DNA of 64,000 bases from Candidatus Undinarchaeota archaeon. Its GTDB lineage: Archaea > SpSt-1190 > JASMDC01. The stretch lies in NCBI GenBank assembly GCA_964519305.1, contig CAZFHY010000010.1, forward strand, positions 64,001 to 128,000. The letters run 5' to 3'. The notes under the pieces are model-generated. The model was not told the DNA's origin and did no database searches. It was given only the letters and a program-made list of their open reading frames with translations. Below, one piece after another: positions 13,581 through 53,923 of this stretch (position 1 is the stretch's first letter; each line of letters begins with the position of its first letter). The position numbers were made by a program, and so were the translations under genes.

Positions 13581-14912
13581 CTACTTATCTAGCACCTGCT
13601 CGGCATCGTCCATCATCTCGATGAACCAGAGCACGGCAGGAAGGTTGTTATCGACAACGTCGTCGATCTCATCCTCGTCGGGATTGAACTGGGTGAATGT
13701 GTTGCCCCACCCTCCACCGCCTTCCAGCTCAACGGTGTAGGCGAGCATCCCCTTGGAGTCCGCCCAGTCCGTGTAGGTGCCGCTGGCCAGCGCCGTGCGA
13801 CCACCGTGGAGCACGTCGTAGGCCCGCTCCATGCGCTCGCTCATCCCATTGCCAATAGCGCGGTAGAGCTCCTCGCGTTCGCCATCCTCGGTGGTGTGGT
13901 CGGGAGCGTACTGGTATTCCCCGCCATAGGAGTGGAACGCCAGCGTTCCCTTGAAATCATGCTCGGCCACGAACTCGGCCATGGCCTTGGCCTCAGGCTC
14001 GCTCATGGCCTCGGGGCCACGGTAGGTCTGGTGCCAGTAGTTACCGCTCGCACCCGGTTTGCCCCAGGCCTCCGAGAAGTTGCGATTTAGGTCAACTCCG
14101 TGGAGAGAGGATGATTTCTCGGCCCAGGTCCCCTCCTCGACGAGCTCACTGTGGTCGCGGGCGGTCTTGCGGTGGTCCGAGTCACCGTACCGCCGCACCT
14201 GCTCGGCCACGATCATCCCGCCATCGGGATTGACGCTCGGGATTATCCATGTGTCCCTGCCGTCAACAAGCTGGGTGATGTAGGCGTCCTTACCATAGCC
14301 GTCGACCATCGCCTTCGCCACGTCGAGTGGTACCTCCACAGCGATGGCCTCCCGGGCATGGAACTGTCCTACCAGCAGCACTTCGGTCCGCGACTCGCGG
14401 TCCTTCACACGAGCATCGCTGCCGATTCGTATCGCGTAGATGGGATTGCCGAGCCCGCTCTTTCCGATTATCTCGACATGGGCTAGGTCGGGCGCCTTCT
14501 TCTCGAGGGCGTACAGTTCCTCTGCGACCTCCTCGGGAACGTGGTACTTGCCCAATCCCCCGTCCCTTAGCGGAGAATCGGTGGGTATACGCTGCCAGGA
14601 CCGGACGTACTGTCCCTGTTCGATGTATTTCTCAAGGGCATCGTCACGGTCGTAGGCGCCCCCTTCAGCGGGAAGCACCATCTCCTTGGGAAGCCGTACC
14701 TCGTAATCGCCGACATCGATCCGGTAGTCGTCCCCCAGCTCGTGCTCCAGCAGTTCCTGGTGGGCGGGAGGCGTCGTGGCCGGATGGTCCGCCGCATACG
14801 CTATCGGTGCGAGAGAAGTAATGGCCGTGGCGCCGAGGACGGCATAGGTAGCGGCGCGCTTCACCACACGGGCGAGCACACCCTCACCATCGCCGTCCCC
14901 GGCTTCTTCCAC
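13581..14912 (-). CDS. M14 zinc carboxypeptidase with an acidic extended signal peptide
   Basis: HARE, RKT, GVDLNRNF, FHSYG and TVEL motifs; leader MEEAGDGDGEG..VVKRAATYAVLG..AYA. Confidence 0.9.
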   Translation of the reverse strand: MEEAGDGDGEGVLARVVKRAATYAVLGATAITSLAPIAYAADHPATTPPAHQELLEHELGDDYRIDVGDYEVRLPKEMVLPAEGGAYDRDDALEKYIEQGQYVRSWQRIPTDSPLRDGGLGKYHVPEEVAEELYALEKKAPDLAHVEIIGKSGLGNPIYAIRIGSDARVKDRESRTEVLLVGQFHAREAIAVEVPLDVAKAMVDGYGKDAYITQLVDGRDTWIIPSVNPDGGMIVAEQVRRYGDSDHRKTARDHSELVEEGTWAEKSSSLHGVDLNRNFSEAWGKPGASGNYWHQTYRGPEAMSEPEAKAMAEFVAEHDFKGTLAFHSYGGEYQYAPDHTTEDGEREELYRAIGNGMSERMERAYDVLHGGRTALASGTYTDWADSKGMLAYTVELEGGGGWGNTFTQFNPDEDEIDDVVDNNLPAVLWFIEMMDDAEQVLDK

Positions 14913-14957
14913 GGCCTAAGTCCCCTGTTTCCCTTTATTCCCCTTTCAGATCGGACC

Positions 14958-16658
14958 TTACTCGTCGTCCCAGAAGGTCTCGAGCTCGTCCGTTTTGTTG
15001 GTGACAACCCACTCGTTCGCCGAGACCTCTTCGAGGTGGTACCCGTTCTTGCCGAACCGGGATACCTCCACCTTGTCCTGGCCGTCATCCAGCTTCCAGA
15101 GCTCTTTCTCTCCCATGGCCTTGATGCTCTTGACCACGGGGATGAAGTCCTTGATGCGGCGCTTGTGGGTTAGGTCGACGGTCTCCTCTTCGGAGCCGTT
15201 GTGTTTGATGTACAGATCACCATCGTTGAAGGCGACGGAGTAGTGGTTGTCGTCCTCCCTGACGATCTTACCCTGTTCACCCTTGAACGACACTTCCCAA
15301 CCGGAGTCGAATATGTACCGGTCACCATCATGGATGAAGGCAGTGCCCTCGATGGTGGTCTTGACCTCGGGCTTCTCGTTGTAGAGCGAGAAGAGGAAGT
15401 TGGAACCCACCCAGAGGGCGGCGCCGGCGGCGGCCACAGGCACGCTTGAGACGGGCCAGGCCTTGGTGGCGGCCACAGTGCCCGAATAGGTACCAAGATA
15501 GATGCCGCTGCCGATGGACGACTCTACGCCCATGATCTGCCAGAAGTTCTCCGAGTAGTCGTCGTGCTCATGCTCCTTCTTGTTGATGAGCTGGTCGTGG
15601 ATGGCGATGTTGGCCTTGCCGCTCATGACACCGGAGATAGCGCTGGCCACGGTTGCCGCGCCGTATATACCGATGAACGCATAGCCGGGGTTCTCTCCGA
15701 AGCGCTTGAGGATGTCAGGGTGGAGGGCGAAGTAGCTGGCGCCGGTGACGGTGCCTAGTCCGGCCGTGTAGAGGTTGACCTTCTTTAGCGCCTCCATGGG
15801 CTTTTCGGAGTTGACGGCGTTGTCGACAACACTCCCCAGTACGCTCTCTCCGAGGATACTGAGCGCGGGGCTGCCGATGTTACCGATCGAGGTGATTGTG
15901 CTGGCGATACCGTAGGCGGCGCCCTGCTCCCACAGCTTGGGCGTGATGACGCCCAAGAGCATGGCAGCACCGACGTTCCCCATCAGGTCACCGACCTTCA
16001 GGACGGCGTACTCGGGATCCTCCTTGAACAGTCGGTAGAACACCTTGAACTTGTCCATGAAGGACTTCTCATCCATCTGGTACATCTCAAGGGAGAGGTC
16101 GTCAGGGATGCCAAAGAAGCTCTTGAAGTCCTCGTTGAAACCGAACTCCTCGAACTCCACGGTCTCTTTGAGGTTGAAGCCGTTCTCCTTGAGGTACTCC
16201 TTGAGGCCAGGATCAGCATCATCGGGGACCGGCAGTTTCTTGGTGCCGATCAGCGAGCCGAAGAACTTACCTTCGCCCCGTTCGGTGATGACCTCGGTGC
16301 GGTATGCCATGGCCGGGTGGAAGGCAGGGTCCTTGACGTCGTACGCCGTGAAGACAGCGTCCTTGCCGGCGGCCGCAGCGGCACGGTAGGCGTCCACATG
16401 GATGCCCTCCTCGTCGGTGTGGTACACCACGGAGAACCGCGCGCCATCGTACCCGGCGTTCACCAGATCGATGTACTGCTCCTCAATCCCGAAGTTGGCC
16501 TTCGCGAACTCGATATTGTTCGGGTTCAGTTGGAACTCGTCGTACTGCGTTCCCGCTACGAAGAGCGGGTTCGCATCGAGCTTGCGAGTAAAGATCTCAG
16601 AGGCAGTGTTGTTCTCCTCATGAAAATCCTCTTCGGAGAGGACTGCTGCATCATACAT
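14958..16658 (-). CDS. Unknown protein: soluble N-domain, ~6-TM MFS-half-like core, soluble C-domain
   Basis: Start re-placed at ATG 16658 (MYDAAV) from the TTTTTTAAA box at about 16683-16691; hydrophobic block about 15380-16010 containing GSVVDN. Confidence 0.65.
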   Translation of the reverse strand: MYDAAVLSEEDFHEENNTASEIFTRKLDANPLFVAGTQYDEFQLNPNNIEFAKANFGIEEQYIDLVNAGYDGARFSVVYHTDEEGIHVDAYRAAAAAGKDAVFTAYDVKDPAFHPAMAYRTEVITERGEGKFFGSLIGTKKLPVPDDADPGLKEYLKENGFNLKETVEFEEFGFNEDFKSFFGIPDDLSLEMYQMDEKSFMDKFKVFYRLFKEDPEYAVLKVGDLMGNVGAAMLLGVITPKLWEQGAAYGIASTITSIGNIGSPALSILGESVLGSVVDNAVNSEKPMEALKKVNLYTAGLGTVTGASYFALHPDILKRFGENPGYAFIGIYGAATVASAISGVMSGKANIAIHDQLINKKEHEHDDYSENFWQIMGVESSIGSGIYLGTYSGTVAATKAWPVSSVPVAAAGAALWVGSNFLFSLYNEKPEVKTTIEGTAFIHDGDRYIFDSGWEVSFKGEQGKIVREDDNHYSVAFNDGDLYIKHNGSEEETVDLTHKRRIKDFIPVVKSIKAMGEKELWKLDDGQDKVEVSRFGKNGYHLEEVSANEWVVTNKTDELETFWDDE

Positions 16659-16856
16659 GAAGGCCACGGGCACCATCGACGGTTTAAAAAAGGTTTTCCT
16701 ACGCGAACCGGAAAACTCGTGTGTCACTACCGCAGAGACACACCACAAATCGCGAAAAGGAAAGGCATTATCACCCGGAATAGGGTGGTTCGCGAATGTC
16801 CGGCCAGAACCGGAATAAGGTGTCACCCGCGAGTAGGAACAAAAGGGAGGGGATAT

Positions 16857-19319
16857 CTAGGCGGTCGCCTCAGCGCCCTCAGGCGCTCCCTCGCTCGACG
16901 TCTCATCCTCTTTCTTCGTGATCTGGAAGTGGAAGAGAGACCTCGTCGACTGCCAGCGGATCCCGCTCTGCATCCCCTGGTACATGTTGAACGCCTCGGT
17001 CTGGTACTCGATGAACGGGTCCTTCTGAGCATAGGCCCTAAGGTGTACACCGCGCTTCATCTCATCCATACCCAGGAGGTGGTCCTTCCACGACATGTCA
17101 GCAGAGTGCAGAAGGACCTGTCGCTCCACCTGTCGGATGACATCCGTCCCTATCTCGGCCTCGCGTTCGTGGTAGCGTCGCATGGCCTCGTTCGTGAGGT
17201 TCTCGGTCAGCTCGTCAGCGTTCTTGACCGAGGCCACGTTGAGGTCGGCCACGTCGATGCCGAAGAGCGCCTGACAGTTATACGCGAACTGCTTCTGAAG
17301 GAACTCGTTCTCCCACTGGTGGGGCTTGGGGCCCTCGGCGGCGAACGATTCCACGACCTCCTCTGCCGTCCGCTCGATGACGTTGTACACGTCCTGCTGC
17401 AGGTCAGGCCGCTCGAGGATGACGTTGCGGTCCTCGTAGAAGATCTCCCGCTGCGTGTTCATGACCTCGTCGTACTTCAGCAGGTTCTTGCGCATCTCGA
17501 AGTGCATGCCCTCGACCTTGACTTGGGCTTGTCGGACGACCTTGTCGATGAGCTTGCCCGACAGCGGCTCGTCCTTGTGGGCGCCTGAGAAGTACTTCTC
17601 CATGTTCTCCGGTCCGTAGAACCGTAGAAGTTCGTCCTCAGCGGACAGGTAGAACCGGCAGGAACCAGGATCTCCCTGGCGACCCTCGCGTCCCAGGAGC
17701 TGGTCGTCGATGCGACGCGAGTCGTGGCGCTCGGTGCCGATGACATGGAGACCTCCGATGTCGGCCACGCCTTCTCCGAGCTTGATGTCGGTACCGCGAC
17801 CGGCCATGTTAGTGGCGACGGTCACTGCACCCTTCTGCCCGGCCCGGCCAATTATGTCGGCCTCCTGCTTATGGTGTTTGGCGTGGAGCACCTGGTGGTC
17901 GATGCCGCGGGCGATGAGCATATCGCTCAGGTGCTCGGACACATCGATGGAACGGGTGCCAACGAGCACGGGGCGGCCTGCCTCGTGCTGGGCCACGATG
18001 TCGTCAACGATCGCGTCGTACTTCTCCTCGGCTGTGCGGTACACCAGGTCGGGCTGGATGTCCCGCTGCATGGGCTCGTTCGTCGGTATCTGGGAGACGT
18101 CCATGCCATAGAGGGAGATGAACTCGCCCTCCTCGGTCTTTGCGGTCCCGGTCATGCCCGAGACGCGGTCGTACATCCGGAAGAAGTTGGGGAACGTGAT
18201 GGAAGCGTAGGTCTGGGAAGGCTCGCGGACCTTCATTTCGGTCTTCCCGGTGGCTAGAAGGTCGTTGTTGGCCTCTTTCGCCTCCAGGGCCTCGTGCAGC
18301 CCGGCCTCGTACCGCCTGCCGTGCATGAGGCGACCGGTGAACTCGTCGACGATTAGCAGCTCACCGTCCGAGACTACGTAGTTCTTGTCCTTTGTGAAGA
18401 GCGAGTGGGCGGCGATGCACTGGCGTGCCGAGTGGTAGAGATGCATGGTCCGCTCGTCCGTGGGCGAGTCCACCCCGAGGGCCTTGGCCAGCTTGTCATC
18501 CCCGCGCTCCGTGAAGAATACGATATGGTCCTTCTCGTGCACCTCATAGTCGCGCCCGGGTTCGAAGTCGCGGACGATACGGTCCATGATGAGGTACTCG
18601 CGGGCAGAGGTGCCCGTGCGTCCAGAGATGATGAGAGGAGTTCTCCCCTCGTCGATGAGGATGGAGTCGACCTCGTCGATGATAGCATAATGCATGCCCC
18701 GCATGACCCGGTCCTCGGGCCGGCGGACCATGTTGTCTTTGAGATGGTCGAATCCGAACTCGTTGTTCGTCCCGTAGGTGATGTCCGACTGGTATGCCGC
18801 CCTGCGGTCCTCGGGGGACTGGTCGTGCTGGATGGTACCGACGGACATCCCCATGAACTCGTAGACCGGAGCCATCTCCTCGGCGTCGCGACCGGCCAGA
18901 TAATCGTTGGCGGTGATGACGTGGACGCCCTTTCCTTCCAATGCATGGAGGTACCCGGAGAGGGTCGCCACCAGTGTCTTGCCCTCACCGGTCTGCATCT
19001 CGGCGATGCGGCCCTCGTGGAGGATCACGCCGCCCTTGACCTGGACGTCGTAATGGCGCATCCCGGTCACGCGGCTGCTCGCCTCGCGCACAGCAGCATA
19101 GGCCTCGGGCATGAGGTCGTCCAGGCTCTCGCCCTCCGCGTATCTATCCCGGAACTCGTTGGTCTTGCCTGCGAGCTCCTCGTCCGAGAGTGCCGCCATC
19201 TCGTCAGCGTAACCGTTGACCTCATCGACGATGTCGTCCAGACGCCGCTGCTCGCGATGGCTGTAGGAGAAGAAGGACTTCACGCCGTCGTAGAATCGAT
19301 CGAGCAACCCGTCCTCCAT
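16857..19319 (-). CDS. secA: Preprotein translocase ATPase SecA (no C-terminal Zn-binding tail)
   Basis: EMQTGEGKT, YLAGRDA, IIDEVDSILIDEGRTPLIISG, GMTGTA, ATNMAGRGTDI, RRIDDQL.GR.GRQGDPG, AYAQKDP. Confidence 0.95.
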   Translation of the reverse strand: MEDGLLDRFYDGVKSFFSYSHREQRRLDDIVDEVNGYADEMAALSDEELAGKTNEFRDRYAEGESLDDLMPEAYAAVREASSRVTGMRHYDVQVKGGVILHEGRIAEMQTGEGKTLVATLSGYLHALEGKGVHVITANDYLAGRDAEEMAPVYEFMGMSVGTIQHDQSPEDRRAAYQSDITYGTNNEFGFDHLKDNMVRRPEDRVMRGMHYAIIDEVDSILIDEGRTPLIISGRTGTSAREYLIMDRIVRDFEPGRDYEVHEKDHIVFFTERGDDKLAKALGVDSPTDERTMHLYHSARQCIAAHSLFTKDKNYVVSDGELLIVDEFTGRLMHGRRYEAGLHEALEAKEANNDLLATGKTEMKVREPSQTYASITFPNFFRMYDRVSGMTGTAKTEEGEFISLYGMDVSQIPTNEPMQRDIQPDLVYRTAEEKYDAIVDDIVAQHEAGRPVLVGTRSIDVSEHLSDMLIARGIDHQVLHAKHHKQEADIIGRAGQKGAVTVATNMAGRGTDIKLGEGVADIGGLHVIGTERHDSRRIDDQLLGREGRQGDPGSCRFYLSAEDELLRFYGPENMEKYFSGAHKDEPLSGKLIDKVVRQAQVKVEGMHFEMRKNLLKYDEVMNTQREIFYEDRNVILERPDLQQDVYNVIERTAEEVVESFAAEGPKPHQWENEFLQKQFAYNCQALFGIDVADLNVASVKNADELTENLTNEAMRRYHEREAEIGTDVIRQVERQVLLHSADMSWKDHLLGMDEMKRGVHLRAYAQKDPFIEYQTEAFNMYQGMQSGIRWQSTRSLFHFQITKKEDETSSEGAPEGAEATA

Positions 19320-19345
19320 CAAGTTGGCCTCGGCCCCGTACGGCC

Positions 19346-19394: not shown

Positions 19395-20018
19395 TCACCC
19401 CCCCAGAATCGGCTGGACGTCCGACACCTTATCGAACGCGTACCCACCATCCTCGGGGCCCCAGACCTGTTCGTCTCGCTCGTTGTAACCCCGGTCCCAG
19501 GCGTACATCCCGCTCTCGTCGATGACAAGCTCGGTCGTGGCGTACACGGCCCCGCCATAGCTGTTCTCGCACTCCTTGCCCCGGGTACCACCCACGAAGG
19601 CGTCGTTCTCCCGGTGGAGGTAGACGACGTTCCCGCGGAAGCCCTCCAGGTCATCGGTTGTGAGGTCGCGGGCCAGCCTACCGTCCTCCCATGTGCCGAC
19701 GAGCTCCTCGCCGTCCCGGATGCGGTAGATGTGGCTCTCGAGGGTACCGTCATCACCGGAAGTCAGCCGGTACGCCCGCTGACGGTAGGGGGAGCCCTCC
19801 ATTCCGGCCATGGCCTGCTCGACGTAGACCCAGTGGTCACTGTCGCTACCACCCTCTACCTCGATGGGGAGCATCTTGAGGCGGATGTCGTAGTAGCTGG
19901 GGTCCTTTTCGGACTGTCGCTGGCTGGAGAACTCGCCCGTCATCCACGCATGGAGCGTGTCGAGGTCGTTCCTCCCTTCGTTCACTTCAGGCACCATGGT
20001 CCCGATATTCCGTGCCAC
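19395..20018 (-). CDS. CpcT/CpeT lyase-family (lipocalin-like) protein
   Basis: WMTGEFSSQRQ, YVEQA, PYRQR.Y and WDRG...EQVWG signatures. Confidence 0.8.
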   Translation of the reverse strand: MARNIGTMVPEVNEGRNDLDTLHAWMTGEFSSQRQSEKDPSYYDIRLKMLPIEVEGGSDSDHWVYVEQAMAGMEGSPYRQRAYRLTSGDDGTLESHIYRIRDGEELVGTWEDGRLARDLTTDDLEGFRGNVVYLHRENDAFVGGTRGKECENSYGGAVYATTELVIDESGMYAWDRGYNERDEQVWGPEDGGYAFDKVSDVQPILGG

Positions 20019-20022
20019 TCGA

Positions 20023-20403
20023 TCAGAACCTTATCCTGAAGAGCGGGACCGCATGCGGGGCCCGGGGGTCGCTGTCCCACCTGTAGACTTCCAGGTCCAC
20101 GCCGGGCGACTCGCCCCTAGTGATATCGAGGTCCACTCCGATGCCCTCTTGTGGCATGTTGTCCATGTCGATCGTCTCGAGGTCGCTGGCATACACCGGG
20201 GCCTCGGCCTTCTCGACATAGGTGTTCGTCTCTTGCGTCATTACGCTCCCGGCCATGGCACCGACGCCCACCAGGAGACCGGCCGCAAGAGCACCTCCGG
20301 CCAGACCGTAGGTGGAAAGGTCGTCTGCCGCAGTATATCCGTCGGCCATCACCGCCGAGGCGGTTCCGGTCGTCTCAAGTTCTTCCATGTACATCATGAT
20401 CAC
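20023..20403 (-). CDS. Small membrane-anchored protein with an ELET-type acidic leader
   Basis: MYMEELETTG..ADGY..ADDL followed by a Gly/Ala TM; GGAGTGA RBS-like sequence. Confidence 0.7.
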   Translation of the reverse strand: MIMMYMEELETTGTASAVMADGYTAADDLSTYGLAGGALAAGLLVGVGAMAGSVMTQETNTYVEKAEAPVYASDLETIDMDNMPQEGIGVDLDITRGESPGVDLEVYRWDSDPRAPHAVPLFRIRF

Positions 20404-20440
20404 TCCTTTCAGTTCTTACAGTATGATATCGTTCGCGGCC

Positions 20441-20980
20441 TCATCGGATACGGAAGTCGAATCCGGGGATACGGATCCGGATGTCAACATCGCTCTGCTC
20501 GTAGGAGGGGTGGCTGTCAGGGGCCAAAGGGTCCGAACCGAACCCGAGCTCGTCCATGTCGGTGTAGCCGTCGTGATCGGTGTCGAACCAGTTCGGGTCC
20601 GTACCGAGCTCCATGACCTCAACACGGTCACTGATGCCGTCAGCGTCGGAGTCCCATTCCAACGTGCTCGTCCTGTACACACTGAGCTCCTTCGAGTCAG
20701 CGAGGCCGTCGTTGTCCGCGTCGGGTACGCCCCGGGCGTAGTCCATGCTGTCGATGAGCCCATCGCCGTCAGTGTCGGCGCTGAAGGGGTTGTTCCCGGT
20801 GACGATATCCTTGGCGGTCGAGTAGCCATCCTTGTCGAAGTCTACCGCGAGCACACCCGTGAGGGCGCCCACGGCTCCCAGGAGGGCGAGCCCCCGACCG
20901 TCCATATCGTCCGTGCTGCTGTATGCGTCGGCGGCCGATGCGCCGTAGCTTCCGTTCGTCTCAAGCTCGTATGCGATCAT
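20441..20980 (-). CDS. ELET-leader protein with Ca-binding TSP3-like (DxDxDG) repeats
   Basis: Start at ATG 20980 (MIAYELETNG); DTDGDGL, DADNDGL, DSDADGI and DTDHDGY repeats with GxDP. Confidence 0.75.
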   Translation of the reverse strand: MIAYELETNGSYGASAADAYSSTDDMDGRGLALLGAVGALTGVLAVDFDKDGYSTAKDIVTGNNPFSADTDGDGLIDSMDYARGVPDADNDGLADSKELSVYRTSTLEWDSDADGISDRVEVMELGTDPNWFDTDHDGYTDMDELGFGSDPLAPDSHPSYEQSDVDIRIRIPGFDFRIR

Positions 20981-21017
20981 GTCCGGCCCTGCCCCTTGTC
21001 CCCTTTTTATACCTTTC

Positions 21018-21049
21018 TTTGGTATACCTAATATATTGGGACTGCCTAA
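21018..21049. promoter_or_regulatory. Tandem DtxR-like operators
   Basis: TTTGG-TATA-CCTAA (21018-21031) and TTGGG-ACTG-CCTAA (21036-21049), 18 bp period. Confidence 0.6.
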
Positions 21050-21130
21050 TATATAGGGCTCTGAGCACAGCTTACCGACATACACAGTAATGTTAGGGGA
21101 TACGAATACATGCAGAGCCGATGAACGGCA

Positions 21131-22102: not shown

Positions 22103-22131
22103 GGCGGTCTTAAAAATTTAGGCGTGCTTAA
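22100..22131. promoter_or_regulatory. Tandem DtxR-like operators overlapping the start of the transglutaminase-like gene
   Basis: CAAGG-CGGT-CTTAA (22100-22113) and TTAGG-CGTG-CTTAA (22118-22131), 18 bp period. Confidence 0.55.
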
Positions 22132-22174
22132 TAATATTCCCTTTGGACACGTCGACTGTGTTCTGGTGCTCAAG

Positions 22175-22210
22175 GAAAAGTTTAAGTATGCCTAACTTAG
22201 GTGGCCCTAA
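22175..22210 (+). promoter_or_regulatory. BRE/TATA with tandem DtxR-like operators
   Basis: GAAAAG-TTTAAGTA promoter; TTAAG-TATG-CCTAA (22182-22195) and perfect TTAGG-TGGC-CCTAA (22197-22210). Confidence 0.7.
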
Positions 22211-22259
22211 CTCAAACCGCAAGGAACGCGGACCGGATGATTATCGAAGGTGATCTGAA

Positions 22260-22715: not shown

Positions 22716-22725
22716 CGGGATACCT

Positions 22726-24279: not shown

Positions 24280-24282
24280 TAC

Positions 24283-25044: not shown

Positions 25045-25050
25045 GCCGGC

Positions 25051-25854: not shown

Positions 25855-25855
25855 C

Positions 25856-35457: not shown

Positions 35458-35460
35458 CGA

Positions 35461-41103: not shown

Positions 41104-41128
41104 TTTCACCACGCTTCCAGTACACTAT

Positions 41129-44092: not shown

Positions 44093-44122
44093 TAGGTCTG
44101 CCTAAGCTTAAGGGTCACCTAA
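44092..44122. promoter_or_regulatory. Tandem DtxR-like operators
   Basis: Perfect TTAGG-TCTG-CCTAA (44092-44105) and TAAGG-GTCA-CCTAA (44109-44122), spanning from the start codon to the TATA. Confidence 0.72.
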
Positions 44123-44310
44123 TAAATGTTTCCTTTCTCCCAAGAGAAGCTACCATTAAAGCTAACAGGTGACCAAATTGTGGCCTGGGGCGGCGGCCGG
44201 GCATGGCATGCCCAGGTGACGTGGTGGCCACCGGCCCCAGACCTATGGTGTCCCCCATGGGGACAATCCCCTATCCTGTTCTCCTTTCTACTGTTCCTGA
44301 CTGTAGCGAT

Positions 44311-45182: not shown

Positions 45183-46481
45183 TCACACGTCCTTGAGCCG
45201 TGCCGAGAAGGAGGAGTCCTCGCCCGAGATGTTAGTGACCACCAGCCAGAGGACCCCGTCCTCGGCGATGTCGATGTCCGTCACACCACCATCGAAGGAG
45301 TCGGCCACGAGGGTTGGCCCCGAAGGCGCCACGACGCCAGCGCGCAACCGGAGCCTTCCGGGGGCAGGGCTCTCCACCCGCACCGTGTCCCCCGCAGTGA
45401 CGCTGGTCTTCATGAACGACATCCCACCACGACCGGACACGTCGACATAGGTACTCGCAGAGAGCCCGGTCGCCGTCACCTCGCCGAGATTGAGCCGCTC
45501 GAACCCGTACACGCCTCCATCGAACGAGGTGTCGTTCACCGCGATGGCCAAGCCCAGGTCAGCGTACACGGTGTCGAGGTCGAGCGTAGGATCGATATCC
45601 CCGAGACGTGCGTCCAGCGAATCCTTCCCATGCAGCGGATCGGCCGTGATCTCCTTGACGAAGCCGTTCCCGAACCGCTCCCAGAGGTAGTCGCCGAAGA
45701 GCATATAGAGACCGTAGTGCCCCTGCCCGATTTGATCGGGGATGAGCGGATGGGACGGGTCGCGCAACCATGCGTCGACCCACTTCTCGTCCGCACCATA
45801 CCCGGTGACCACCATCGCCACCTCGCTCATGGCCTCGTTTAGCCAGCTCTCCTCCTCCGCGTCGTGGCCCCAGTGGATGAGGTGCTGTAGCTCATGGGCC
45901 TGTACTGAGAGCATGTAGTCCGAGTCGGGAGCGTAATGGAGCGTGTTGATATGGAGGGTCTCGTGACGGTTGGACACGGGGACGTCGAGCTGGTCCTCGA
46001 CCTTGAAGTAGCCGTCGAACCCGTGCCCGTTGTACGATCCCATCTCGTACAGGAACAGGTATACCTTCGGATCGTTGTCGAACTCATCCGGTGGATCCCC
46101 GAACAGTCCGGTGACCTGGTCGTAGATACCACGCTCGGGATCAGAGGGCGTTCCCTCGTCCCATGCCTTGATGAGATTGTCCACCGTTCTCTCATCGACG
46201 GAGTGGCCCCAGGCCGCGTCCTCGACGACGACGTAGACGTTCCTCCCCTCACCGCGGACGCTGGCCGCGATCTGCTTGTCCCGGGGAGGCATCACCGAGA
46301 GGTCCCACACCCACCACATATCGTTGGCAGGAGCGTACGGTCCAGAAGGTGTCACACCGCGGTCATCATAGGCCGGAGGGTACTGACAGAAGGGCCGGTG
46401 GGCCGCTCCATATTCCGGGATCGGGTCCCCTGGCTCTGGAACGTACTCCACGACCTCGTCAACGGGACCTGTGTCCTCCAT
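45183..46481 (-). CDS. Zinc metalloprotease (M30/M6-like)
   Basis: FGDPP.FDND.KV, GYF, AHELQHLIH and WLNEAMSE; start ATG 46481 or GTG 46493. Confidence 0.78.
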   Translation of the reverse strand: MEDTGPVDEVVEYVPEPGDPIPEYGAAHRPFCQYPPAYDDRGVTPSGPYAPANDMWWVWDLSVMPPRDKQIAASVRGEGRNVYVVVEDAAWGHSVDERTVDNLIKAWDEGTPSDPERGIYDQVTGLFGDPPDEFDNDPKVYLFLYEMGSYNGHGFDGYFKVEDQLDVPVSNRHETLHINTLHYAPDSDYMLSVQAHELQHLIHWGHDAEEESWLNEAMSEVAMVVTGYGADEKWVDAWLRDPSHPLIPDQIGQGHYGLYMLFGDYLWERFGNGFVKEITADPLHGKDSLDARLGDIDPTLDLDTVYADLGLAIAVNDTSFDGGVYGFERLNLGEVTATGLSASTYVDVSGRGGMSFMKTSVTAGDTVRVESPAPGRLRLRAGVVAPSGPTLVADSFDGGVTDIDIAEDGVLWLVVTNISGEDSSFSARLKDV

Positions 46482-46489
46482 CGGACCGC

Positions 46490-48037
46490 TCACTGGTTGC
46501 CCTGCTGCGACTGCAGGTAGATCTGGAGCCACAGAGGGATCTCGAAGGCCTCCTCGATGGTGGGGTTCCGCTTCTGCATGAGCTCATCCCACGAGGTGTC
46601 CTCAGCGAATCCTGTCTTCTCATACAGCTCCTTGTAGTGATCGTACTCCCGCTGCACGCTGGGGACGTAGATGTGGAGCCCCGTCGCAGTCCCATGGGAC
46701 TGGGCGTTGTGCTGCTCGGCGACGACCACCTGTCCGATGGACTCGAGCACCTTGTTGGCAGCATCGCGCACCGCGGGTTCGTACTTCTCGTTAGCAGCGA
46801 GCCGCTCGGCCAGGTCACCCAGGTCCACTAGAGGCTCCGGGAAACCGAGAAGAGGATGGGTACCGAAATGGAGGCTGGCGTCGTTGGCCTTGTTGAACTC
46901 CTCCATGGGGACCTTGGATTCGAGAAGAGCATCGGCCAGTCCGTCCACGGCCTCGGCCACCTTGGGCATCTTGCCCACTTCGGTGGCGGAAAGGGTCCTG
47001 AGGTTCTGCTGGTCGTTCTCGGCCTCCTTTACTATAAGGTAGCTCATCAGCTTGGGCGAGAGCTCGGGGCGCTGCCCGTCCTTGAACGCCTTGGAGTACT
47101 TCTCCATGACCACGAGCGCACGGTTGCCCATGATACCCTCGTAGGGCCAGCCTTCGGCGCCCTCCAGCTCCTCGCTGGCCACCAGGAAGTCGGTGACGCT
47201 CCGTACCTGGTAGGCACCCTCGGTTGAGGCCATCAGGCACGCATCGTACCCGAGCACGTCGATCTTGACGCCCGTCTTCTGCTTGACCTTGCCCAGGGCC
47301 TCCTGGACCTGTGCCCAGGTCATGGAATCGCTACCCGCAGAGTCGTCGGTGATGGAGCCTGTCCAGCCCATACCGTGGTCCGAGATGACGACCATGTAGT
47401 TCTTCGCGGGGAAGTTCTGGACGCCCCACTCCACGAAGTCCTGAAGGTTGGCGGGATCGGCCATGTCGATCTGACCTAGCTCGCCCAGAACTGGGGAGTT
47501 GAGCTCGCCCTTCGTAGCATCCTTCTGGAGGTGGTAGCGCCGGGCGCCGGTCCAAGCCCGCTTCGCCATGTCCGTCTTGCCCTCGGCCTTCTCGCCGCGG
47601 TCGAGCTGAACGACCACGTCCGCGTTGTCGGTGGAACCGATCTTCTCCATATCGTCCACGTCGGCGACCTGATAGGCCTCGAGGTTGTTGTCGGCAGCGG
47701 AGTAGACCAGGATGGTCCATTCCTTGCCTTCGGCCTGGTCGTCCTGGGCAGCATAATTGAGCGGGATGGAGGACGGGAGGGTGACCTGGTAATCGCCCAT
47801 ATCGATGACGTTGCCCTGCTTGGTCTGCTCGGTCTCGATGACGTACGCCGGCTGGGGGTCCGTGCCGGGAGGCGGGAGCGTGTTGGGGAGCATGCCGCCA
47901 CCGATGCCGACAATAGCACCACCGATGGTGGCTACAAGTCCAAGTCCTGCGGCGGCGTAGGTGGCCACCTGCTTGGTAGTAAGCCCCTCTTCCTTCTCGT
48001 TCGCTTCCGGTTCAGGTTCCTGCTCGACGTACATCAT
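46490..48037 (-). CDS. Clostripain-family (C11) cysteine peptidase 2
   Basis: WTILVYSAADNNL, SDHGMGW, GYDACLM; GGAGG RBS. Confidence 0.9.
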   Translation of the reverse strand: MMYVEQEPEPEANEKEEGLTTKQVATYAAAGLGLVATIGGAIVGIGGGMLPNTLPPPGTDPQPAYVIETEQTKQGNVIDMGDYQVTLPSSIPLNYAAQDDQAEGKEWTILVYSAADNNLEAYQVADVDDMEKIGSTDNADVVVQLDRGEKAEGKTDMAKRAWTGARRYHLQKDATKGELNSPVLGELGQIDMADPANLQDFVEWGVQNFPAKNYMVVISDHGMGWTGSITDDSAGSDSMTWAQVQEALGKVKQKTGVKIDVLGYDACLMASTEGAYQVRSVTDFLVASEELEGAEGWPYEGIMGNRALVVMEKYSKAFKDGQRPELSPKLMSYLIVKEAENDQQNLRTLSATEVGKMPKVAEAVDGLADALLESKVPMEEFNKANDASLHFGTHPLLGFPEPLVDLGDLAERLAANEKYEPAVRDAANKVLESIGQVVVAEQHNAQSHGTATGLHIYVPSVQREYDHYKELYEKTGFAEDTSWDELMQKRNPTIEEAFEIPLWLQIYLQSQQGNQ

Positions 48038-48045: not shown

Positions 48046-49527
48046 CTACTGGTCTCCCTTACTCTGATTCGCCCGCTCCTGGAGGAACTCGTCCCACTGG
48101 GTGTCCTCTGCGAAGTCGAGCTCACCGTACCTCTCACCCTCGAAGGAGTACTTGCCCTCGAAGGGCACGTAGATGTGCAGACCATGGGCGTTGGGATGAG
48201 TGGCCTCGTTGTTCTGCTCGGCGACGACGACCTGGTCAACGGCCTCGATGACCTTTGCCGCGGCCTCGCGCACATCAGCGCCGTAGGCGTCATTGGCAGA
48301 TACCTTCTCGGCCAGTTCTACTGCGTCCACGAGCGGCTCCACGGACCACCACTGCCTCCCGAAGTGGAAGGATTCCTCGGCGATCTGGTTGAACTCGCTT
48401 ATTGGTACCTTGGACCCTCGCAGGGCCTCGGCGAACCCGTCCATGGCCTCGGCGACCTTGGGCATCTTCTCGACCTCGACGGCAGAGAGGGTGGGTAGGT
48501 TCCGCTGGTCGTTCTCGGCCTCCTTGACGATGAGGAAGCTCATCAGCTTGGGTGTGAGCTCTGGGCGCTTTCCATCCTTGAAGGCCGTAGAGAACTTCTC
48601 CATGACCACAAGGGCGCGGTTGCCCATGATGCCCTCGTATGGCCAGCCCTCGGCGCCCTCAAGCTCCTGGCTCGCCACCAGGTAGTCCGTCACGGACCGG
48701 ACCTGGTAGGCGCCCTCGGCAGATGCCATGAGGCATGCATCGTACCCGAGAACGTCGATCTTCGCACCGGTCTTCTGCATGACCTTGCCCAGGGCTTCCT
48801 GGACCTCGACCCATGTCATCTCGTGGTCCCCGGAGGAGTCGTCCCCGATGGCACCAGTCCATCCGGCGCCGTGGTCCGAGATGACGAGCATGTAGTTCTT
48901 GGCCGGGTAGTTCTGGACACCCCACTCGAGGAAGTCCGCCAGCACATCGGGATCGGCCATGTTGACCTGCCCGAGCTCGCCCATCATGGGGGAGTTGAGC
49001 TTCCCTTTCTCGGCGTCCTTCTGGAGGTGGTAGCGCCGGGCACCGGTCCAGGCCCTCTCTCCCGAGTCGACCTGACCCTCGGCGACCGTGCCGCGGTCGA
49101 CCTGGACCACGACGTCCACGTACTTGTCCGAACCGACCGTCTCCATGTCGTCGTTGTCGGCCATGAGATAGGGCTCGAGGTTGTTGTCGGCGGCCGAGTA
49201 GACGAGGATGGTCCACTCCTTGCCCTGTGTTCGGGCGTCCTCTGCCGCGTAGTTCAGCGGGATGGACGAGGGGAGGGTGACTGAGTAGTTACCCATGTCG
49301 ATGACGTTCCCCTGTGTGCTCTGCTCGGTCTCGGTCACATAGGCCGGTCTCGGGGTCGTGCCCGGGGGCGGCTGGAACGGAGGTAGGATATTTATGGCGC
49401 CACCGATGGCGGCCACGAGGCCCAGGCCCACAGCGCTGTAGGTAGCTACCTGCTTGAGCGTGAGCCCTTCCTCTTCTTCTCGTTCCGGTACTTCATCATT
49501 CTCGTTCTCGATGTACATCATGATCAC
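48046..49527 (-). CDS. Clostripain-family (C11) cysteine peptidase 3
   Basis: SDHGAGW and GYDACLM; close paralogue of peptidase 2 in the catalytic domain. Confidence 0.9.
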   Translation of the reverse strand: MIMMYIENENDEVPEREEEEGLTLKQVATYSAVGLGLVAAIGGAINILPPFQPPPGTTPRPAYVTETEQSTQGNVIDMGNYSVTLPSSIPLNYAAEDARTQGKEWTILVYSAADNNLEPYLMADNDDMETVGSDKYVDVVVQVDRGTVAEGQVDSGERAWTGARRYHLQKDAEKGKLNSPMMGELGQVNMADPDVLADFLEWGVQNYPAKNYMLVISDHGAGWTGAIGDDSSGDHEMTWVEVQEALGKVMQKTGAKIDVLGYDACLMASAEGAYQVRSVTDYLVASQELEGAEGWPYEGIMGNRALVVMEKFSTAFKDGKRPELTPKLMSFLIVKEAENDQRNLPTLSAVEVEKMPKVAEAMDGFAEALRGSKVPISEFNQIAEESFHFGRQWWSVEPLVDAVELAEKVSANDAYGADVREAAAKVIEAVDQVVVAEQNNEATHPNAHGLHIYVPFEGKYSFEGERYGELDFAEDTQWDEFLQERANQSKGDQ

Positions 49528-50787
49528 CTATTGAACATCACTGACCCGACGGGGTCTGCTTCATCTTCTCTGCTCGGTCCTTGAGCCACTCGTCCCACTG
49601 GGTGTCCTCGGCGAACTCCATCTGCTCGTACGCCTCACCGTCGTAGGATCCTGCCCACCAGCTCGACGGTACGTAGATGTGCAGCCCGTGGGAACCGGGA
49701 TGGCTCGAGTTGTGGTGCTCGGCCACGATCGCCTGGTCAACGGCCTCGATGACCTTGTTGGCAGCGAGCTTCACGTCCTTGCCGTACTGCTCGTTGGCAG
49801 CAAGGTTCTTTGCCAGGTCGACCACGTCCACCAGGGGCGATCCCCAGCCGTAATCCTGGCTGTTGCCCTCCACGGTGTTGAACTCGGTAACGGGTACCTC
49901 GGACGCGCGCAGCGCCTCGGCCAGCCCGTTCACGGCTGATGCCACCTTGGGCATCTTCTCGAGCTCTGTTGAGGAGAGCGTGTCGAAAGTGGCGGTATCG
50001 TTAGCGCCTTCCTTGACTATTAGATAGGAGTAGAGCTTGGGCGAGAGCGCGGGGCGGTCAGCGTCCTTGAAGGAGCGGTTGAACTTCTCCATGACGTCCA
50101 GGGCCCGCTGGCTGATGATGCCCTCGAAGGGCCAGCCCTCGACGCCCTCCAGCTCCTCGCTGGCCACCAGGAACCCGGCCGCGTCGCGGACCTGGTAGGC
50201 TACCTCGGTCGAGCCCATGAGGCACGCGTCGAAGCCGAGGATGTCGATCTGTGCGCCGGTGCGCTCCTTGACCTGCTCGAGCGCCTGGTCGAGCTCCGGC
50301 GTGGACATCTGTCCTGCGTGGTGTGAGCTGTCGTCGATGAAGCCCTCCCAGCCCGAACCATGGTCGGCGATGATGAGCATGTAGTGCTTGGCAGGGAAGT
50401 TGTTGACGGTGAACTCCACGAACTCCGCCAGTGTCTCAGGAGCGGCCATGTCCACCTGTCCGAGCTCCTCCAGCACCGGTGAGTTGTAGTTGATAGGGTC
50501 CGTGTCCTTCTGGATGTGATAGCGCCGGGCACCGGTCCAGTCACCGCCTTGCGGTGTGTCGGCGGTGTAACCGCGGTCCACCTGGACCACGATGTCCATG
50601 TAGTCGTTGGACCCCAGCTTCTCCATGTCGTTGATGTCGGTGAGCTGGTCGTTCTCGAGGTTGTTGTCAGAGGCGGAGTAGATCATGACGGTCCATTCCT
50701 TGGCCTCGGAGGGAACCCGGGCATCCTCGCCATACACAAGGGGGATGTCCTCGGGCAGGGTGACCTGGTATTCGCCCATGTCGATGG
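49215..50787. repeat. Copy 1 of a ~1.57 kb direct duplication
   Basis: Matches about 52130-53700 at an offset of 2913 bp across most of its length, including the intergenic CTATTGAACA (49528/52441). Confidence 0.85.
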
Positions 50788-50956
50788 CATCGGGACCGGT
50801 GACGGTCCCCTGCTGGTGGACGTAGGCGGGCTGCACCGGCGCGGCGCCCATGACTGGCGCCATCACGCCGCCGACGGCCGAGAGCACGCCCGCTGCAAGA
50901 GCGGCGTAGCCCGCGACCTTCCCGACAGGTGCTCCGTCACCGTCGGCCTCCTCCAT
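49538..50956 (-). CDS. Clostripain-family (C11) cysteine peptidase 4
   Basis: ADHGSGW and GFDACLM; start ATG 50956 (MEEADGDG) next to the upstream stop. Confidence 0.9.
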   Translation of the reverse strand: MEEADGDGAPVGKVAGYAALAAGVLSAVGGVMAPVMGAAPVQPAYVHQQGTVTGPDAIDMGEYQVTLPEDIPLVYGEDARVPSEAKEWTVMIYSASDNNLENDQLTDINDMEKLGSNDYMDIVVQVDRGYTADTPQGGDWTGARRYHIQKDTDPINYNSPVLEELGQVDMAAPETLAEFVEFTVNNFPAKHYMLIIADHGSGWEGFIDDSSHHAGQMSTPELDQALEQVKERTGAQIDILGFDACLMGSTEVAYQVRDAAGFLVASEELEGVEGWPFEGIISQRALDVMEKFNRSFKDADRPALSPKLYSYLIVKEGANDTATFDTLSSTELEKMPKVASAVNGLAEALRASEVPVTEFNTVEGNSQDYGWGSPLVDVVDLAKNLAANEQYGKDVKLAANKVIEAVDQAIVAEHHNSSHPGSHGLHIYVPSSWWAGSYDGEAYEQMEFAEDTQWDEWLKDRAEKMKQTPSGQ

Positions 50957-50957
50957 C

Positions 50958-52430
50958 CTAGGTACCCCCGTCCCGCTCGTTGGTCTCGGCCACCGCCCGC
51001 TCCACGAGCTCGTCCCAGTGGGTGTCCCGGGCGAACGCAGTGGCGCGGTACTCGTCACCATACTTCCCGAACACCCGATCGTCGAACGTGAGGAACACCT
51101 GCAGCCCGTGCGCGTCCCGGTTCTCCTCGTTGTGCTGCTCCGCGACGACCGTCTTCGCGAGTGCGTCGAGCACGCCCCGGGCAGCGTCCCGGACCACCTC
51201 GTCGCCGGCGTACGCGTCGCTTGCGAGAATCCTCTCAGCGAGGTCGCCCGTGTCCACGACCACGCCGTTGGCGTACCACCATAAGGTGTTGTCCCCCACC
51301 TCCTCGAACGTGCTCATGGACACGCCCGATGCATCGAGCGCCCTGGCGAGCGAGTCCATCGCCTCGACCACGTCGGGCATCCCGGACAGCTCGACCGCGG
51401 ACAGTGTCTCGATCACGTCCTGATGACGCTCGGCCTCGCTCACGATGAGGTACGACATGATCCGTGGTGTGAGCTCGGGCCGCTCGCCGTCCTTGAACGC
51501 ATCGGTGAACCTCTTGCCGACCCCCACGGCGGCTCTTCCAAGGAACCCGTCGTAGGACCAGCCGTCCGCCCACTCGACCGCCTCGCTGGCCACCATGTAG
51601 TCTGCCGAGCCACGCAGCCGGTACGCGACCTCGGTGGAGGCCATGAGGCACATGTCGAACCCGAGGACGTCGATTTTCACGCCCGTCCTCTCCTTCACCA
51701 CCGCCAGTGCTTCCTGCATCTGCGCCGGCGTCATCAGGGTCGACCCGCTGGCCGAGTAGTCCACTATGGCACCGTGCCAGCCGAGGCCGTGGTCGTGGAT
51801 GACGAGCAGGTAGTGCTCGGCGGGGAAGCTCGAGAGGCCCCAGGTGACGAAGTCCGCGAGCGTCGCCGGGTCGGCCATATCGACCTGCCCGAGCTCGGCC
51901 AGCACCGGCGACGTGATACCCACCTCGCCGTCGTCCCTCTGGAGGCGGTACCGCCGGGCGCCGGTCCACTCGCCGTGCCCCTCGGCCACAGCATCGGCCT
52001 CCACGCCCCGGTCCATCTGGACGACGACGTCCATGTACTCGCTGGAGCCCACGCTCTCCATCTCGTCGATGTTGTCCATCAGGTAGTGCTCCAGATCGTT
52101 GTCTCCTGCGGCGTAGACGAGCACGGTCCACTCCTTGCCCTCGGCCCTTTCGCCGTCTGCTTCATAGTTCAGCGGGATGGACGAGGGGAGGGTGACAGAA
52201 TAGTTGCCCATGTCGATGACGTTCCCCTGGGTGCTCTGCTCGACCTCAGTCACATAGGCCGGCTGCGGGGTAGTGCCCGGGGGCGGCTGTACTGGCGGGA
52301 GGATGCTTAAGGCGCCGCCGATGGCGGCCACAAGTCCTAGGCCAGCTGCACCGTAGGTCGCGACCTGTTTGAGCGTGAGTCCTTCCTCTTCTCGTTCCGG
52401 CGTTTCATCCTGCTCGTTCTCGATATACAG
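50958..52430 (-). CDS. Clostripain-family (C11) cysteine peptidase 5 (CTG start or start-proximal frameshift)
   Basis: HDHGLGW and GFDMCLM; the frame is open to CTG 52430 (LYIENEQDE..), while ATG 52434 is out of frame. Confidence 0.82.
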   Translation of the reverse strand: MYIENEQDETPEREEEGLTLKQVATYGAAGLGLVAAIGGALSILPPVQPPPGTTPQPAYVTEVEQSTQGNVIDMGNYSVTLPSSIPLNYEADGERAEGKEWTVLVYAAGDNDLEHYLMDNIDEMESVGSSEYMDVVVQMDRGVEADAVAEGHGEWTGARRYRLQRDDGEVGITSPVLAELGQVDMADPATLADFVTWGLSSFPAEHYLLVIHDHGLGWHGAIVDYSASGSTLMTPAQMQEALAVVKERTGVKIDVLGFDMCLMASTEVAYRLRGSADYMVASEAVEWADGWSYDGFLGRAAVGVGKRFTDAFKDGERPELTPRIMSYLIVSEAERHQDVIETLSAVELSGMPDVVEAMDSLARALDASGVSMSTFEEVGDNTLWWYANGVVVDTGDLAERILASDAYAGDEVVRDAARGVLDALAKTVVAEQHNEENRDAHGLQVFLTFDDRVFGKYGDEYRATAFARDTHWDELVERAVAETNERDGGT

Positions 52431-53700
52431 TCATAATCACCTATTGAACATCACTGACCCGACGGGGTCTGCTTCATCTTCTCTACTCGGTCCTTGAGCC
52501 ACTCGTCCCACTGGGTGTCCTCGGCGAACTCCATCTGCTCGTACGCCTCGCCGTCGTAGGACCCTGCCCAATAGCTCGACGGGACGTAGATGTGCAGCCC
52601 ATGGGAACCGGGATGGCTCGAGTTGTGGTGCTCGGCCACGATCGCCTGGTCTACGGCCTCGATCACCTTGTTGGCCGCGAGCTTCACGTCCTTACCGTAC
52701 TGCTCGTTGGCAGCAAGGTTCTTTGCCAGGTCCACCACGTCCACCAGGGGCGAGCCCCAGCCGTAGTCCTGGCTGTTGCCCTCCACTGTGTTGAACTCGG
52801 TGACGGGTACCTCGGACGCACGCAGCGCCTCGGCTAGCCCGTTCACGGCTGATGCCACCTTGGGCATCTTCTCAAGTTCAGTGGAGGAAAGGGTGTCGAA
52901 GGTGGCGGTATCGTTGGCGCCCTCCTTGACGATTAAGTAGGAGTATAGCTTGGGCGTGAGCGCGGGACGGTCGGCGTCCTTGAACGATTGGTTGAACTTC
53001 TCCATGACGTCCAGGGCCCGCTGGCTGATGATGCCCTCGAAGGGCCAGCCCTCGACGCCCTCCAGCTCCTCGCTGGCCACCAGGAACCCGGCCGCGTCGC
53101 GGACCTGGTAGGCTACCTCGGTCGAGCCCATGAGGCACGCGTCGAAGCCGAGGATGTCGATCTGTGCGCCGGTGCGCTCCTTGACCTGCTCGAGCGCCTG
53201 GTCGAGCTCCGGCGTGGACATCTGTCCTGCGTGGTGTGAGCTGTCGTCGATGAAGCCCTCCCAGCCCGAACCATGGTCGGCGATGATGAGCATGTAGTGC
53301 TTGGCAGGGAAGTTGTTGACGGTGAACTCCACGAACTCCGCCAGTGTCTCCGGGGCGGCCATGTCCACCTGTCCCAGTTCCGCCAGGATTGGTGAGTTGT
53401 AGTTGATGGGATCCGTGTCCTTCTGGATCAGATAGCGTCGGGCGCCGGTCCAGTCGCCGCCCTGAGGCGTGTCAGCGGTGTAGCCGCGGTCCACCTGGAC
53501 CACTATGTCCATGTAGTCGTTGGATCCCAGTTTCTCCATGTCGTTGATATCGGTGAGCTGGTCGTTCTCGAGGTTGTTGTCCGACGCGGAGTAGATCATG
53601 ATGGTCCATTCCTTGGCCTCGGAGGGCACGCGGGCATCCTCGCCGTAAACGAGGGGGATGTCCTCGGGCAGGGTGACCTGGTATTCGCCCATGTCGATGG
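52130..53700. repeat. Copy 2 of the ~1.57 kb direct duplication
   Basis: See 49215-50787. Confidence 0.85.
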
Positions 53701-53923
53701 TACGGGACTTGACGACATCCTGGGCCTCCGTGATGAAGGCGGGCCTGTGAGGCCCGGTCCCCGGAGCGGGCGCGGTATCGCCGGGACCCGCGGTGACGCC
53801 GATGGCGCCGCCCACGGCTGCAGCGAGGCCGAGGCCCAGTGCGACATACCCGCCGACCTTCTTGAGGGTGAGCCCTTCCTTCTCGTTCTCCAAGTCAGTT
53901 TCGTACTCTACGTCCATGATCAT
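52451..53923 (-). CDS. Clostripain-family (C11) cysteine peptidase 6
   Basis: Near-identical to peptidase 4 from IDMGEYQ onward; start overlaps the upstream stop (TGATG). Confidence 0.9.
   Translation of the reverse strand: MIMDVEYETDLENEKEGLTLKKVGGYVALGLGLAAAVGGAIGVTAGPGDTAPAPGTGPHRPAFITEAQDVVKSRTIDMGEYQVTLPEDIPLVYGEDARVPSEAKEWTIMIYSASDNNLENDQLTDINDMEKLGSNDYMDIVVQVDRGYTADTPQGGDWTGARRYLIQKDTDPINYNSPILAELGQVDMAAPETLAEFVEFTVNNFPAKHYMLIIADHGSGWEGFIDDSSHHAGQMSTPELDQALEQVKERTGAQIDILGFDACLMGSTEVAYQVRDAAGFLVASEELEGVEGWPFEGIISQRALDVMEKFNQSFKDADRPALTPKLYSYLIVKEGANDTATFDTLSSTELEKMPKVASAVNGLAEALRASEVPVTEFNTVEGNSQDYGWGSPLVDVVDLAKNLAANEQYGKDVKLAANKVIEAVDQAIVAEHHNSSHPGSHGLHIYVPSSYWAGSYDGEAYEQMEFAEDTQWDEWLKDRVEKMKQTPSGQ

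Follow-up and report, generated by a model that had tools for sequence, protein, structure and literature searches.

Conserved modules that adjoin an export leader and are common to unrelated enzymes, such as accessory Sec transport (AST) segments, dockerins and C-terminal sorting domains, address or organise secreted proteins. The AST segment comprises 30-40 amino acids, comes after a long signal peptide of an atypical kind and is needed for targeting (PMC6973325, in the part of the paper available), and glycines in the core of the GspB signal peptide decide the route that is taken (PMC5578698, in the accessible part). Here we describe a module of this familiar general kind in a stretch of DNA of 64,000 nucleotides, referred to below as the window, from a Candidatus Undinarchaeota archaeon (GCA_964519305.1, contig CAZFHY010000010.1, positions 64,001 to 128,000). 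The module is an unnamed, lineage-restricted segment of the address or handle type that is found on unrelated secreted enzymes. Our results support one homologous and selectively maintained module on non-homologous catalytic domains, which now represent four folds.

A total of eight proteins in the window were found to carry the module, namely six C11 clostripains (Peptidase_C11 at about 1e-40 to 1e-42 in six open reading frames (ORFs)), one M14 carboxypeptidase (Peptidase_M14, 1.8e-52) and one alpha/beta hydrolase (ABH; Abhydrolase_1, 9.7e-19, and related families). The core is 26-29 residues long and reads PA[Y/F/H]..E..[I/L/F]x[M/V/I][G/D]xYxVxLP. An earlier interpretation made without database searches (the sequence-only reading) had given IDxG as part of the consensus, which is not universal, as the clostripain termed C1 has NIDG and the ABH has TVDG. 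The residues P, A, Y, V, L and P are invariant across the eight aligned window copies, with V being near-invariant once 12 copies are aligned, while in an ABH orthologue with 82% identity M replaces L and the core ends in SMP instead of LP. The conserved positions alternate in a strand-like manner and the flanking linkers vary freely, the residues after LP being SS, ED, TE, EA, KE or EG. All eight copies are encoded on the minus strand within a long co-directional run of minus-strand genes. Their layout is constant, where an uncharged, hydrophobic N-terminal helix of 16-28 amino acids is followed by a linker of 9-21 amino acids (10-56% proline), after which the core begins. The leader before the module has 42-62 amino acids, and in all six C11 enzymes the catalytic domain begins 16-17 amino acids past the core.

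The sequence-only reading had proposed that the M14, ABH and clostripain proteins carry the same module. A hidden Markov model (HMM) was built from the six clostripain modules and searched against 39,559 stop-to-stop segments representing the whole 3.63-Mb genome. The top two non-training matches genome-wide were the ABH (E 1.2e-4, 23.0 bits) and the M14 carboxypeptidase (E 0.13, 13.2 bits), with the next match at E 0.95. The proposal also withstood the control against shuffled sequences that had been asked for with it, as none of the 2000 shuffles made for each protein reached the real score (16.6 bits versus a shuffle maximum of 6.7 for M14; 26.9 versus 11.7 for the ABH). An HMM of all eight copies retrieved exactly these eight at E <= 1.1e-10 genome-wide, followed by a match at E 0.86. 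The M14 copy, which has PAH, is the weakest and is borderline by itself genome-wide; it was accepted on account of how it ranks, its place right behind the leader and the fact that the orthologue conserves it. The other island proteins tested scored at most 0.9 bits with the module HMM (eight of eight).

The M14 gene (13581-14912, minus strand) encodes a leader with a hydrophobic run at residues 20-35 and a small-x-small site between AYA and AD (assigned by eye), the module core at residues 49-75 (window 14688-14768; 42.1 bits with the HMM of all eight copies) and the Peptidase_M14 domain at residues 132-424. In the ABH gene (42980-44092, minus strand; Abhydrolase_1/Hydrolase_4 in Pfam), the leader contains an FRRY motif and a hydrophobic run at residues 21-40, and the core lies at residues 57-82 (window 43847-43924). 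A lipoprotein signal (AASC) was considered for the ABH leader and is not supported, since its orthologue with 82% identity (P0016) retains the RR and the module but not the Cys. C1 (41299-42948, minus strand, with a likely ATG start at about 42813; Peptidase_C11, 3.9e-42) is the most divergent clostripain paralogue and its core (window 42568-42654) contains a 3-residue insertion. The remaining five clostripains, all of them Pfam Peptidase_C11 and on the minus strand, form an array consisting of C3 (46490-48037; core at residues 63-88, window 47774-47851), C4 (48046-49527; core 49270-49347), C5 (49538-51061, likely ATG start at 50956; core 50753-50830), C6 (50958 to about 52439; core 52185-52262) and C7 (52451-53932; core 53666-53743). 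C7 is the first gene of the array, with an overlap of 10 nucleotides between its start and the stop of the transglutaminase-like gene upstream. The His/Cys dyad of the C11 carriers (H220 and C266) is invariant in 11 sequences of the lineage.

The module is restricted to one archaeal genus-level lineage. A profile search genome by genome found it in two of 61 archaeal genomes, which are this genome and a sister of the same genus (G001), corresponding to two of the 17 genomes of the class (the whole phylum as sampled). Ten matches were obtained from a word-seeded profile search of 5.8 billion proteins and all of them belong to this lineage (seven C11, the ABH, the M14 and an S8 subtilase). When 1.84 billion representative proteins were searched exhaustively with HMMER, 13 matches at E <= 1e-3 were obtained. 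Five of them are full-length single matches to proteins of this lineage, and the other eight add up short matches that cover only the GxYxVxLP half. Six of these eight (all except P0014 and P0019) were examined and discarded, three being Ig-repeat proteins of the Big_6/SdrD_B type and three being translations of low-complexity repeats. The module had earlier been described as not recognisable as a named domain, and the searches agree with this: the only match to the eight modules in a Pfam hmmscan at E <= 10 was a chance-level DUF7510 (E 0.037) in one of the eight, and a sequence profile search of the PDB gave no matches at E <= 10. No paper on the module or on this lineage was found in a literature search. 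The two genomes of the genus are 3.6-3.8 Mb in size (99.8% and 98% complete, with 4% and 6% contamination) and the other 15 genomes of the class or phylum as sampled are 0.6-1.2 Mb. The source given for one near-identical public protein is 'Methanopyri archaeon'.

Homologues outside the lineage were found to have the catalytic domains without the module. The 119 non-lineage M14 homologues lack it (best score, 1.5 bits), and the nearest non-lineage C11 homologues (36-42% identity, with bacterial labels) align to the catalytic 75% or so only. MAFFT placed a D-x-V-x-L-G stretch of the bacterial C11 homologues under Y-x-V-x-L-P, and this stretch was rejected as a relative of the module because the 95th percentile of 2450 shuffles was exceeded by only three of 49 N-termini, against an expectation of about 2.5. 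The nearest bacterial clostripain homologues (P0020-P0044) have no hydrophobic signal; they begin with a low-complexity N-terminus of 30-80 amino acids in which [DE]-D-x-V-x-L-G recurs, followed by KKW at the start of the domain. This stretch may be a different, unrecognised secretion segment or pro-segment.

The fourth fold is represented by the S8 subtilase (P0009), which is 100% identical to G001:C41:30207-31613 and has a complete leader. Its module (about residues 54-79) is followed by a Fervidolysin_NPro-like prodomain (88-157) and then by Peptidase_S8 (194-438). A known propeptide was the explanation against which the sequence-only reading had set its claim, and the module is not a classical propeptide since this carrier has a prodomain of its own downstream. 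Two other S8 genes, which belong to the genome of the window (G000), were inspected and have neither a hydrophobic leader nor the module.

Within the clostripain/S8 array, the leaders have evidently been exchanged by recombination separately from the enzyme bodies, and the breakpoints fall at the module or within it. Between C5 and C7 the identity is 43% in the leader before the module, 54% in the module and 98% in the catalytic body, while between C4 and C6 the corresponding values are 84%, 96% and 54%. At the DNA level, C4 and C6 have an identity of 95-98% upstream and of 78-90% along the leader, with a drop in similarity after about nucleotide 250 of C4, at the end of the module. C5 and C7 are unrelated until about nucleotide 160 of C5, inside the module, and are more than 90% identical thereafter. 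In G001 the transglutaminase-like gene is directly followed by the S8 gene, which has the first array slot, that of C7 in the genome of the window; the DNA of the S8 gene and of C7 is 87-97% identical upstream and in the first 100 nucleotides, 65-80% identical over the module, and then unrelated. Maximum-likelihood trees were also discordant, as C5, C7 and g1C7 group together by body (100/100) and C6 groups with C4/C3 by leader (90/99), the leader tree being poorly resolved with only 92 columns. These comparisons support the leader and module as what appears to be a transferable unit. The M14 and ABH leaders showed no DNA similarity to each other or to the clostripain leaders compared (z -1.0 to 1.7; for the ABH these were C5 and C1 only), which indicates that the motif is kept at the protein level and that its sharing across folds is old. 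The EEA.DGDG start common to the C5 and M14 leaders was tried as a sign of shared origin and dismissed (DNA z -0.3). The module is evidently under purifying selection, judging from the ratio of non-synonymous to synonymous differences per site (pN/pS) pooled over four orthologue pairs, which was 0.18 for the module (Sd 25, Nd 15), 0.20 for the rest of the leader and 0.11 for the catalytic bodies.

Two further features of the array were observed. An identical 14-nucleotide hairpin, GACCCCGTCGGGTC, occurs at 49543-49556 and at 52456-52469 (minus strand), just downstream of the stops of C5 and C7 and upstream of C4 and C6 (two matches versus 0.15 expected; one of 100 shuffles reached two). The hairpin may serve in intercistronic processing or as a terminator, and may have been copied together with the leader. 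C4 is preceded by a Shine-Dalgarno-like site, AGGTGAT, and C6 has the same upstream region and the same site. In C6 (52400-52470, minus strand) the ATG after this site is off frame by one nucleotide (ATGACTGTAT versus ATGATGTAC) and the frame that encodes the leader has no ATG, GTG or TTG start. The called C6 protein (P0001, 457 amino acids), which is reported on 12 contigs, begins within the hydrophobic helix. C6 could be a pseudogene, use a non-canonical start or represent a leaderless form.

The leaders that precede the module are of at least two types. When the whole genome was scanned for N-terminal hydrophobic 19-mers with a proline-rich stretch behind them, 36 ORFs were returned, which include three array genes (C3, C4 and C7) with an n-region net charge of -4 to -7 and 21-32% glycine in the helix. 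When the layout was measured leader by leader, all five array leaders and that of the S8 subtilase have a net charge of -3 to -7 and 17-33% glycine. The other 33 scanned leaders are mostly basic or neutral with 0-16% glycine (37% in one shadow ORF) and many of them have a lipobox-like Cys. The M14 and ABH leaders, with 6% and 15% glycine respectively, are not of the glycine-rich type. Upstream of the array, two operon-mates (o53923, which is transglutaminase-like, and o54981; 53923-56015, minus strand) have an acidic N-tail, a glycine-rich helix and a proline stretch comparable to those of the array leaders and are without the module (HMM score of 0 bits or less), from which it follows that the module is not needed for such an anchor. 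By eye o54981 appeared to hold a stretched copy (...GAIIHE...FVLRLP), which was rejected at -0.1 bits.

An AlphaFold2 model of C3 was obtained from a 66-row alignment with a mean predicted local distance difference test score (pLDDT) of 80.8 for the body; an 11-row alignment gave a mean of 44.9 and was unusable. Three short strands at residues 64-66, 76-78 and 83-85 fall on the conserved positions of the module. The model matches clostripain 9cip_B with a Z score of 40.2 and a root mean square deviation of 2.3 over 363 aligned residues (model 95-491). Solved C11 structures align from about residue 95 of C3 onward, so that the module is an addition outside the known fold. A search of the ESM Atlas with residues 20-100 of C3 gave no usable match.

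A gene for a bacterial-type SecA (16857-19322, minus strand; SecA_DEAD 7e-120 with PPXD, P-loop and wing/scaffold) is located two genes from the M14 gene, an arrangement that is found in both genomes of the genus, and the protein is 92% conserved in G001. A second full-length SecA with 63% identity is encoded on an 8-kb contig (G000:C36:3068-5542). Of the 61 archaeal genomes searched, only the two that bear the module yielded a full-length SecA, and the genome of the window has a single SecY with no SecY2 found. The contig of the window (C10) is archaeal, with MCM, TFE-alpha, topoisomerase VI A and B, aIF-1A and RIO1 encoded outside the window. Co-occurrence of the module with archaeal secA had been suggested by the sequence-only reading; the same two of the 61 genomes do hold both, but as they belong to one genus the overlap counts as one event and not as a correlation, and the suggestion holds only trivially. 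In the available part of a 2018 review, SecA substitutes are stated to be not identified in archaea (PMC6098224).

Several other genes of the island were noted. A protein of 622 amino acids (14958-16826, minus strand) is encoded between SecA and M14; it has a central hydrophobic region rich in glycine and alanine (about residues 290-480), matches no Pfam family, is 93% conserved in G001 and might be a partner of SecA and M14 in the membrane. A pair of giant secreted paralogues (31501-41112, minus strand), of 1318 and 1883 amino acids, contain 48 and 92 Cys respectively and share about 44% identity across most of their sequence. An M23 peptidase domain is present in the larger one; G001 has only one giant, of 1887 amino acids. 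Cohesin-like repeats were considered for the giants and rejected, as no off-diagonal self-matches were found in the four proteins analysed, which were the giants and other large neighbours. A block of 7 kb (about 19395-26671) that encodes CpeT-like, TSP3-repeat, transglutaminase-like, FG-GAP, DUF1838 and Zn-peptidase-like proteins is missing at the orthologous place in G001, as are C1, the ABH and o44311 (41299-45093). The ORF at 45183-46532 (minus strand) lies at the downstream end of the array, on the side of the ABH. It does not encode a clostripain and is without the module, a Pfam match or a hydrophobic leader. It is 81% conserved in G001 and contains a HELQH...WLNEA motif, which we take to be that of a gluzincin-like metallopeptidase.

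What the module does was weighed among several readings, and we lean, tentatively, to a common surface handle, that is, a three-strand element acting outside the membrane that would dock, space or organise the hydrolases. The module would be a lineage-specific mini-domain of three short beta-strands bracketed by prolines, placed after a linker rich in proline, glycine and threonine, and would constitute the outer end of the N-terminal export leader. Together, leader and module would act as a portable 5' unit, and the secreted hydrolases behind it belong to at least four folds (C11, S8, M14 and alpha/beta). After translocation, the module would work on the outer face of the membrane, where it may hold, space or dock the enzymes at the cell surface. 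Such a post-translocation role is suggested because the module goes with different leader types, the glycine-rich acidic type as well as the ordinary type of M14 and the ABH, and because operon-mates with the same anchor that lie outside these enzyme families are without it. The module is confined to hydrolases, and its distribution appears to fit this role better than a targeting role. The following weighs against the surface handle. The AlphaFold2 confidence over the module is low (pLDDT 52-65), the giant surface neighbours have no internal repeats that could be used as multiple docking sites, acidic residues flank the glycine-rich helix on both sides so that the membrane orientation of the C11 enzymes is not certain, and the lineage sample is small, with about 13 distinct copies from two genomes and a few metagenome contigs.

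The restriction of SecA to the module-bearing genomes and its place beside M14 in both could instead point to an export-targeting element, in which the atypical leader and the module would route the carriers to the bacterial-type SecA of this archaeon in the manner of the accessory-Sec AST. The glycine content of the array leaders, which recalls the role of glycine in the GspB signal-peptide core, and the statement in the review that no SecA substitute is known in archaea are consistent with this, but we consider it unlikely. The co-occurrence comes from a single lineage, SecY is present once and SecY2 is missing, and the second SecA is on a contig without genes of the module type. The M14 and ABH leaders are not glycine-rich, while the operon-mates have glycine-rich anchors and no module, and the other exported proteins of the island (the giants and o28564) have ordinary signal peptides and are likewise without it. 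Alanine, serine and threonine together make up 4-27% of the module in nine of nine copies, compared to the 30-50% given for AST (PMC6973325, available part), and three of the four AST properties tested appear not to hold for the module. That the glycine-rich acidic leader and the module might be the address label of SecA-driven post-translational export for a small regulon of surface hydrolases is, in our view, distinctly improbable.

The carriers are all hydrolases and mostly peptidases, which would also suit a maturation or latency segment, where leader and module tether or inactivate the enzymes until a common protease cuts near the module. The candidate proteases would be a clostripain or the transglutaminase-like cysteine peptidase encoded immediately upstream, and the array is translationally coupled to this transglutaminase-like/BTLCP-type gene in both genomes. 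C11 enzymes cleave after basic residues, a Lys just before the C11 catalytic domain (K104) is invariant in 11 of 11 lineage sequences, and the Lys/Arg-rich KKW precedes the domain in the bacterial homologues. We nevertheless find this reading doubtful, as the S8 enzyme retains a prodomain of its own after the module, no match to a propeptide family was obtained for the module and no basic residue is conserved in or beside it across three or four folds. As read from its sequence, the ABH has no Lys or Arg between module and domain, and it is unlikely that one segment would inhibit four different active sites. The breakpoints at or inside the module and its very narrow distribution would be expected if it had no function of its own and were a conserved linker that persists as a homology patch for leader exchange. 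This is very unlikely given the pN/pS of the module, the strand-like alternation of its conserved positions next to linkers that vary, and the retention of the motif in M14 and the ABH at 27-44% protein identity without DNA similarity, which recombination does not explain.

The surface handle, should it be true, would add a new and very small docking or spacing element. Should export targeting be true, the module would offer a way into the question of what drives post-translational Sec export in an archaeon, and under the SecA address-label proposal it would be an archaeal counterpart of the accessory-Sec signal and AST, with the first defined set of archaeal SecA substrates. The module is of interest for having no relative in Pfam, the PDB or the 1.84 billion representative proteins outside the lineage, and its host lineage is unusual for archaea in encoding a bacterial-type SecA. 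Cassette exchange is clear at the gene level, and one instance is the genomic slot where G001 has a subtilase body in place of a clostripain body. The significance is tempered by the narrow distribution in one uncultured genus-level lineage.

Compared to known systems, the module resembles the AST of accessory-Sec substrates (GspB and other serine-rich repeat adhesins) in having a SecA gene in the same island, and may be comparable to it in size and position. It has 26-29 amino acids and starts 9-21 amino acids past a run of 16-28, and the leader before it has 42-62 amino acids and not about 90. It differs from the AST in that there is no sequence similarity, the module being strand-prone and not having a high content of alanine, serine and threonine; moreover, the cargo consists of hydrolases instead of serine-rich adhesins and the host is an archaeon. 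An accessory-Sec locus combines SecA2 with SecY2 and Asp, while two SecA and a single SecY are present here, and no Asp or glycosyltransferase families turned up in the Pfam scans of the island, in which they were not searched by name. The LPXTG signal of sortases is C-terminal and is followed by a hydrophobic stretch and a basic tail, whereas the LP of the module is N-terminal and is followed by a catalytic domain. Peptidase propeptides (the Fervidolysin_NPro/I9 type of S8, the M14 pro-domain and the clostripain pro-segment) are similarly N-terminal to the catalytic domain of a secreted peptidase, but the present module serves four folds, is additional to a real S8 prodomain, matches none of the propeptide families in Pfam and is absent from the non-lineage M14 homologues and bacterial C11 N-termini described above.

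Polymorphic toxin or cassette systems have a constant leader, a conserved boundary motif, exchangeable downstream domains and tandem mosaic paralogues (PMC3482391, in the part available), all of which are also seen here. The payloads in this locus are ordinary hydrolases and not toxins with immunity genes, the exchange moves the leader as much as the payload, and no orphan cassettes or immunity genes were seen in general Pfam scans and ORF lists of the island. The module also differs from dockerins in being N-terminal and adjoining the membrane, next to giant neighbours that lack repeats, and no dockerin or cohesin matches were found in the modules or island proteins in general Pfam scans. It is nevertheless like the dockerin-cohesin system of the cellulosome in being a small module common to enzymes of different folds within one substrate class, and in that these enzymes are co-encoded near giant surface proteins.

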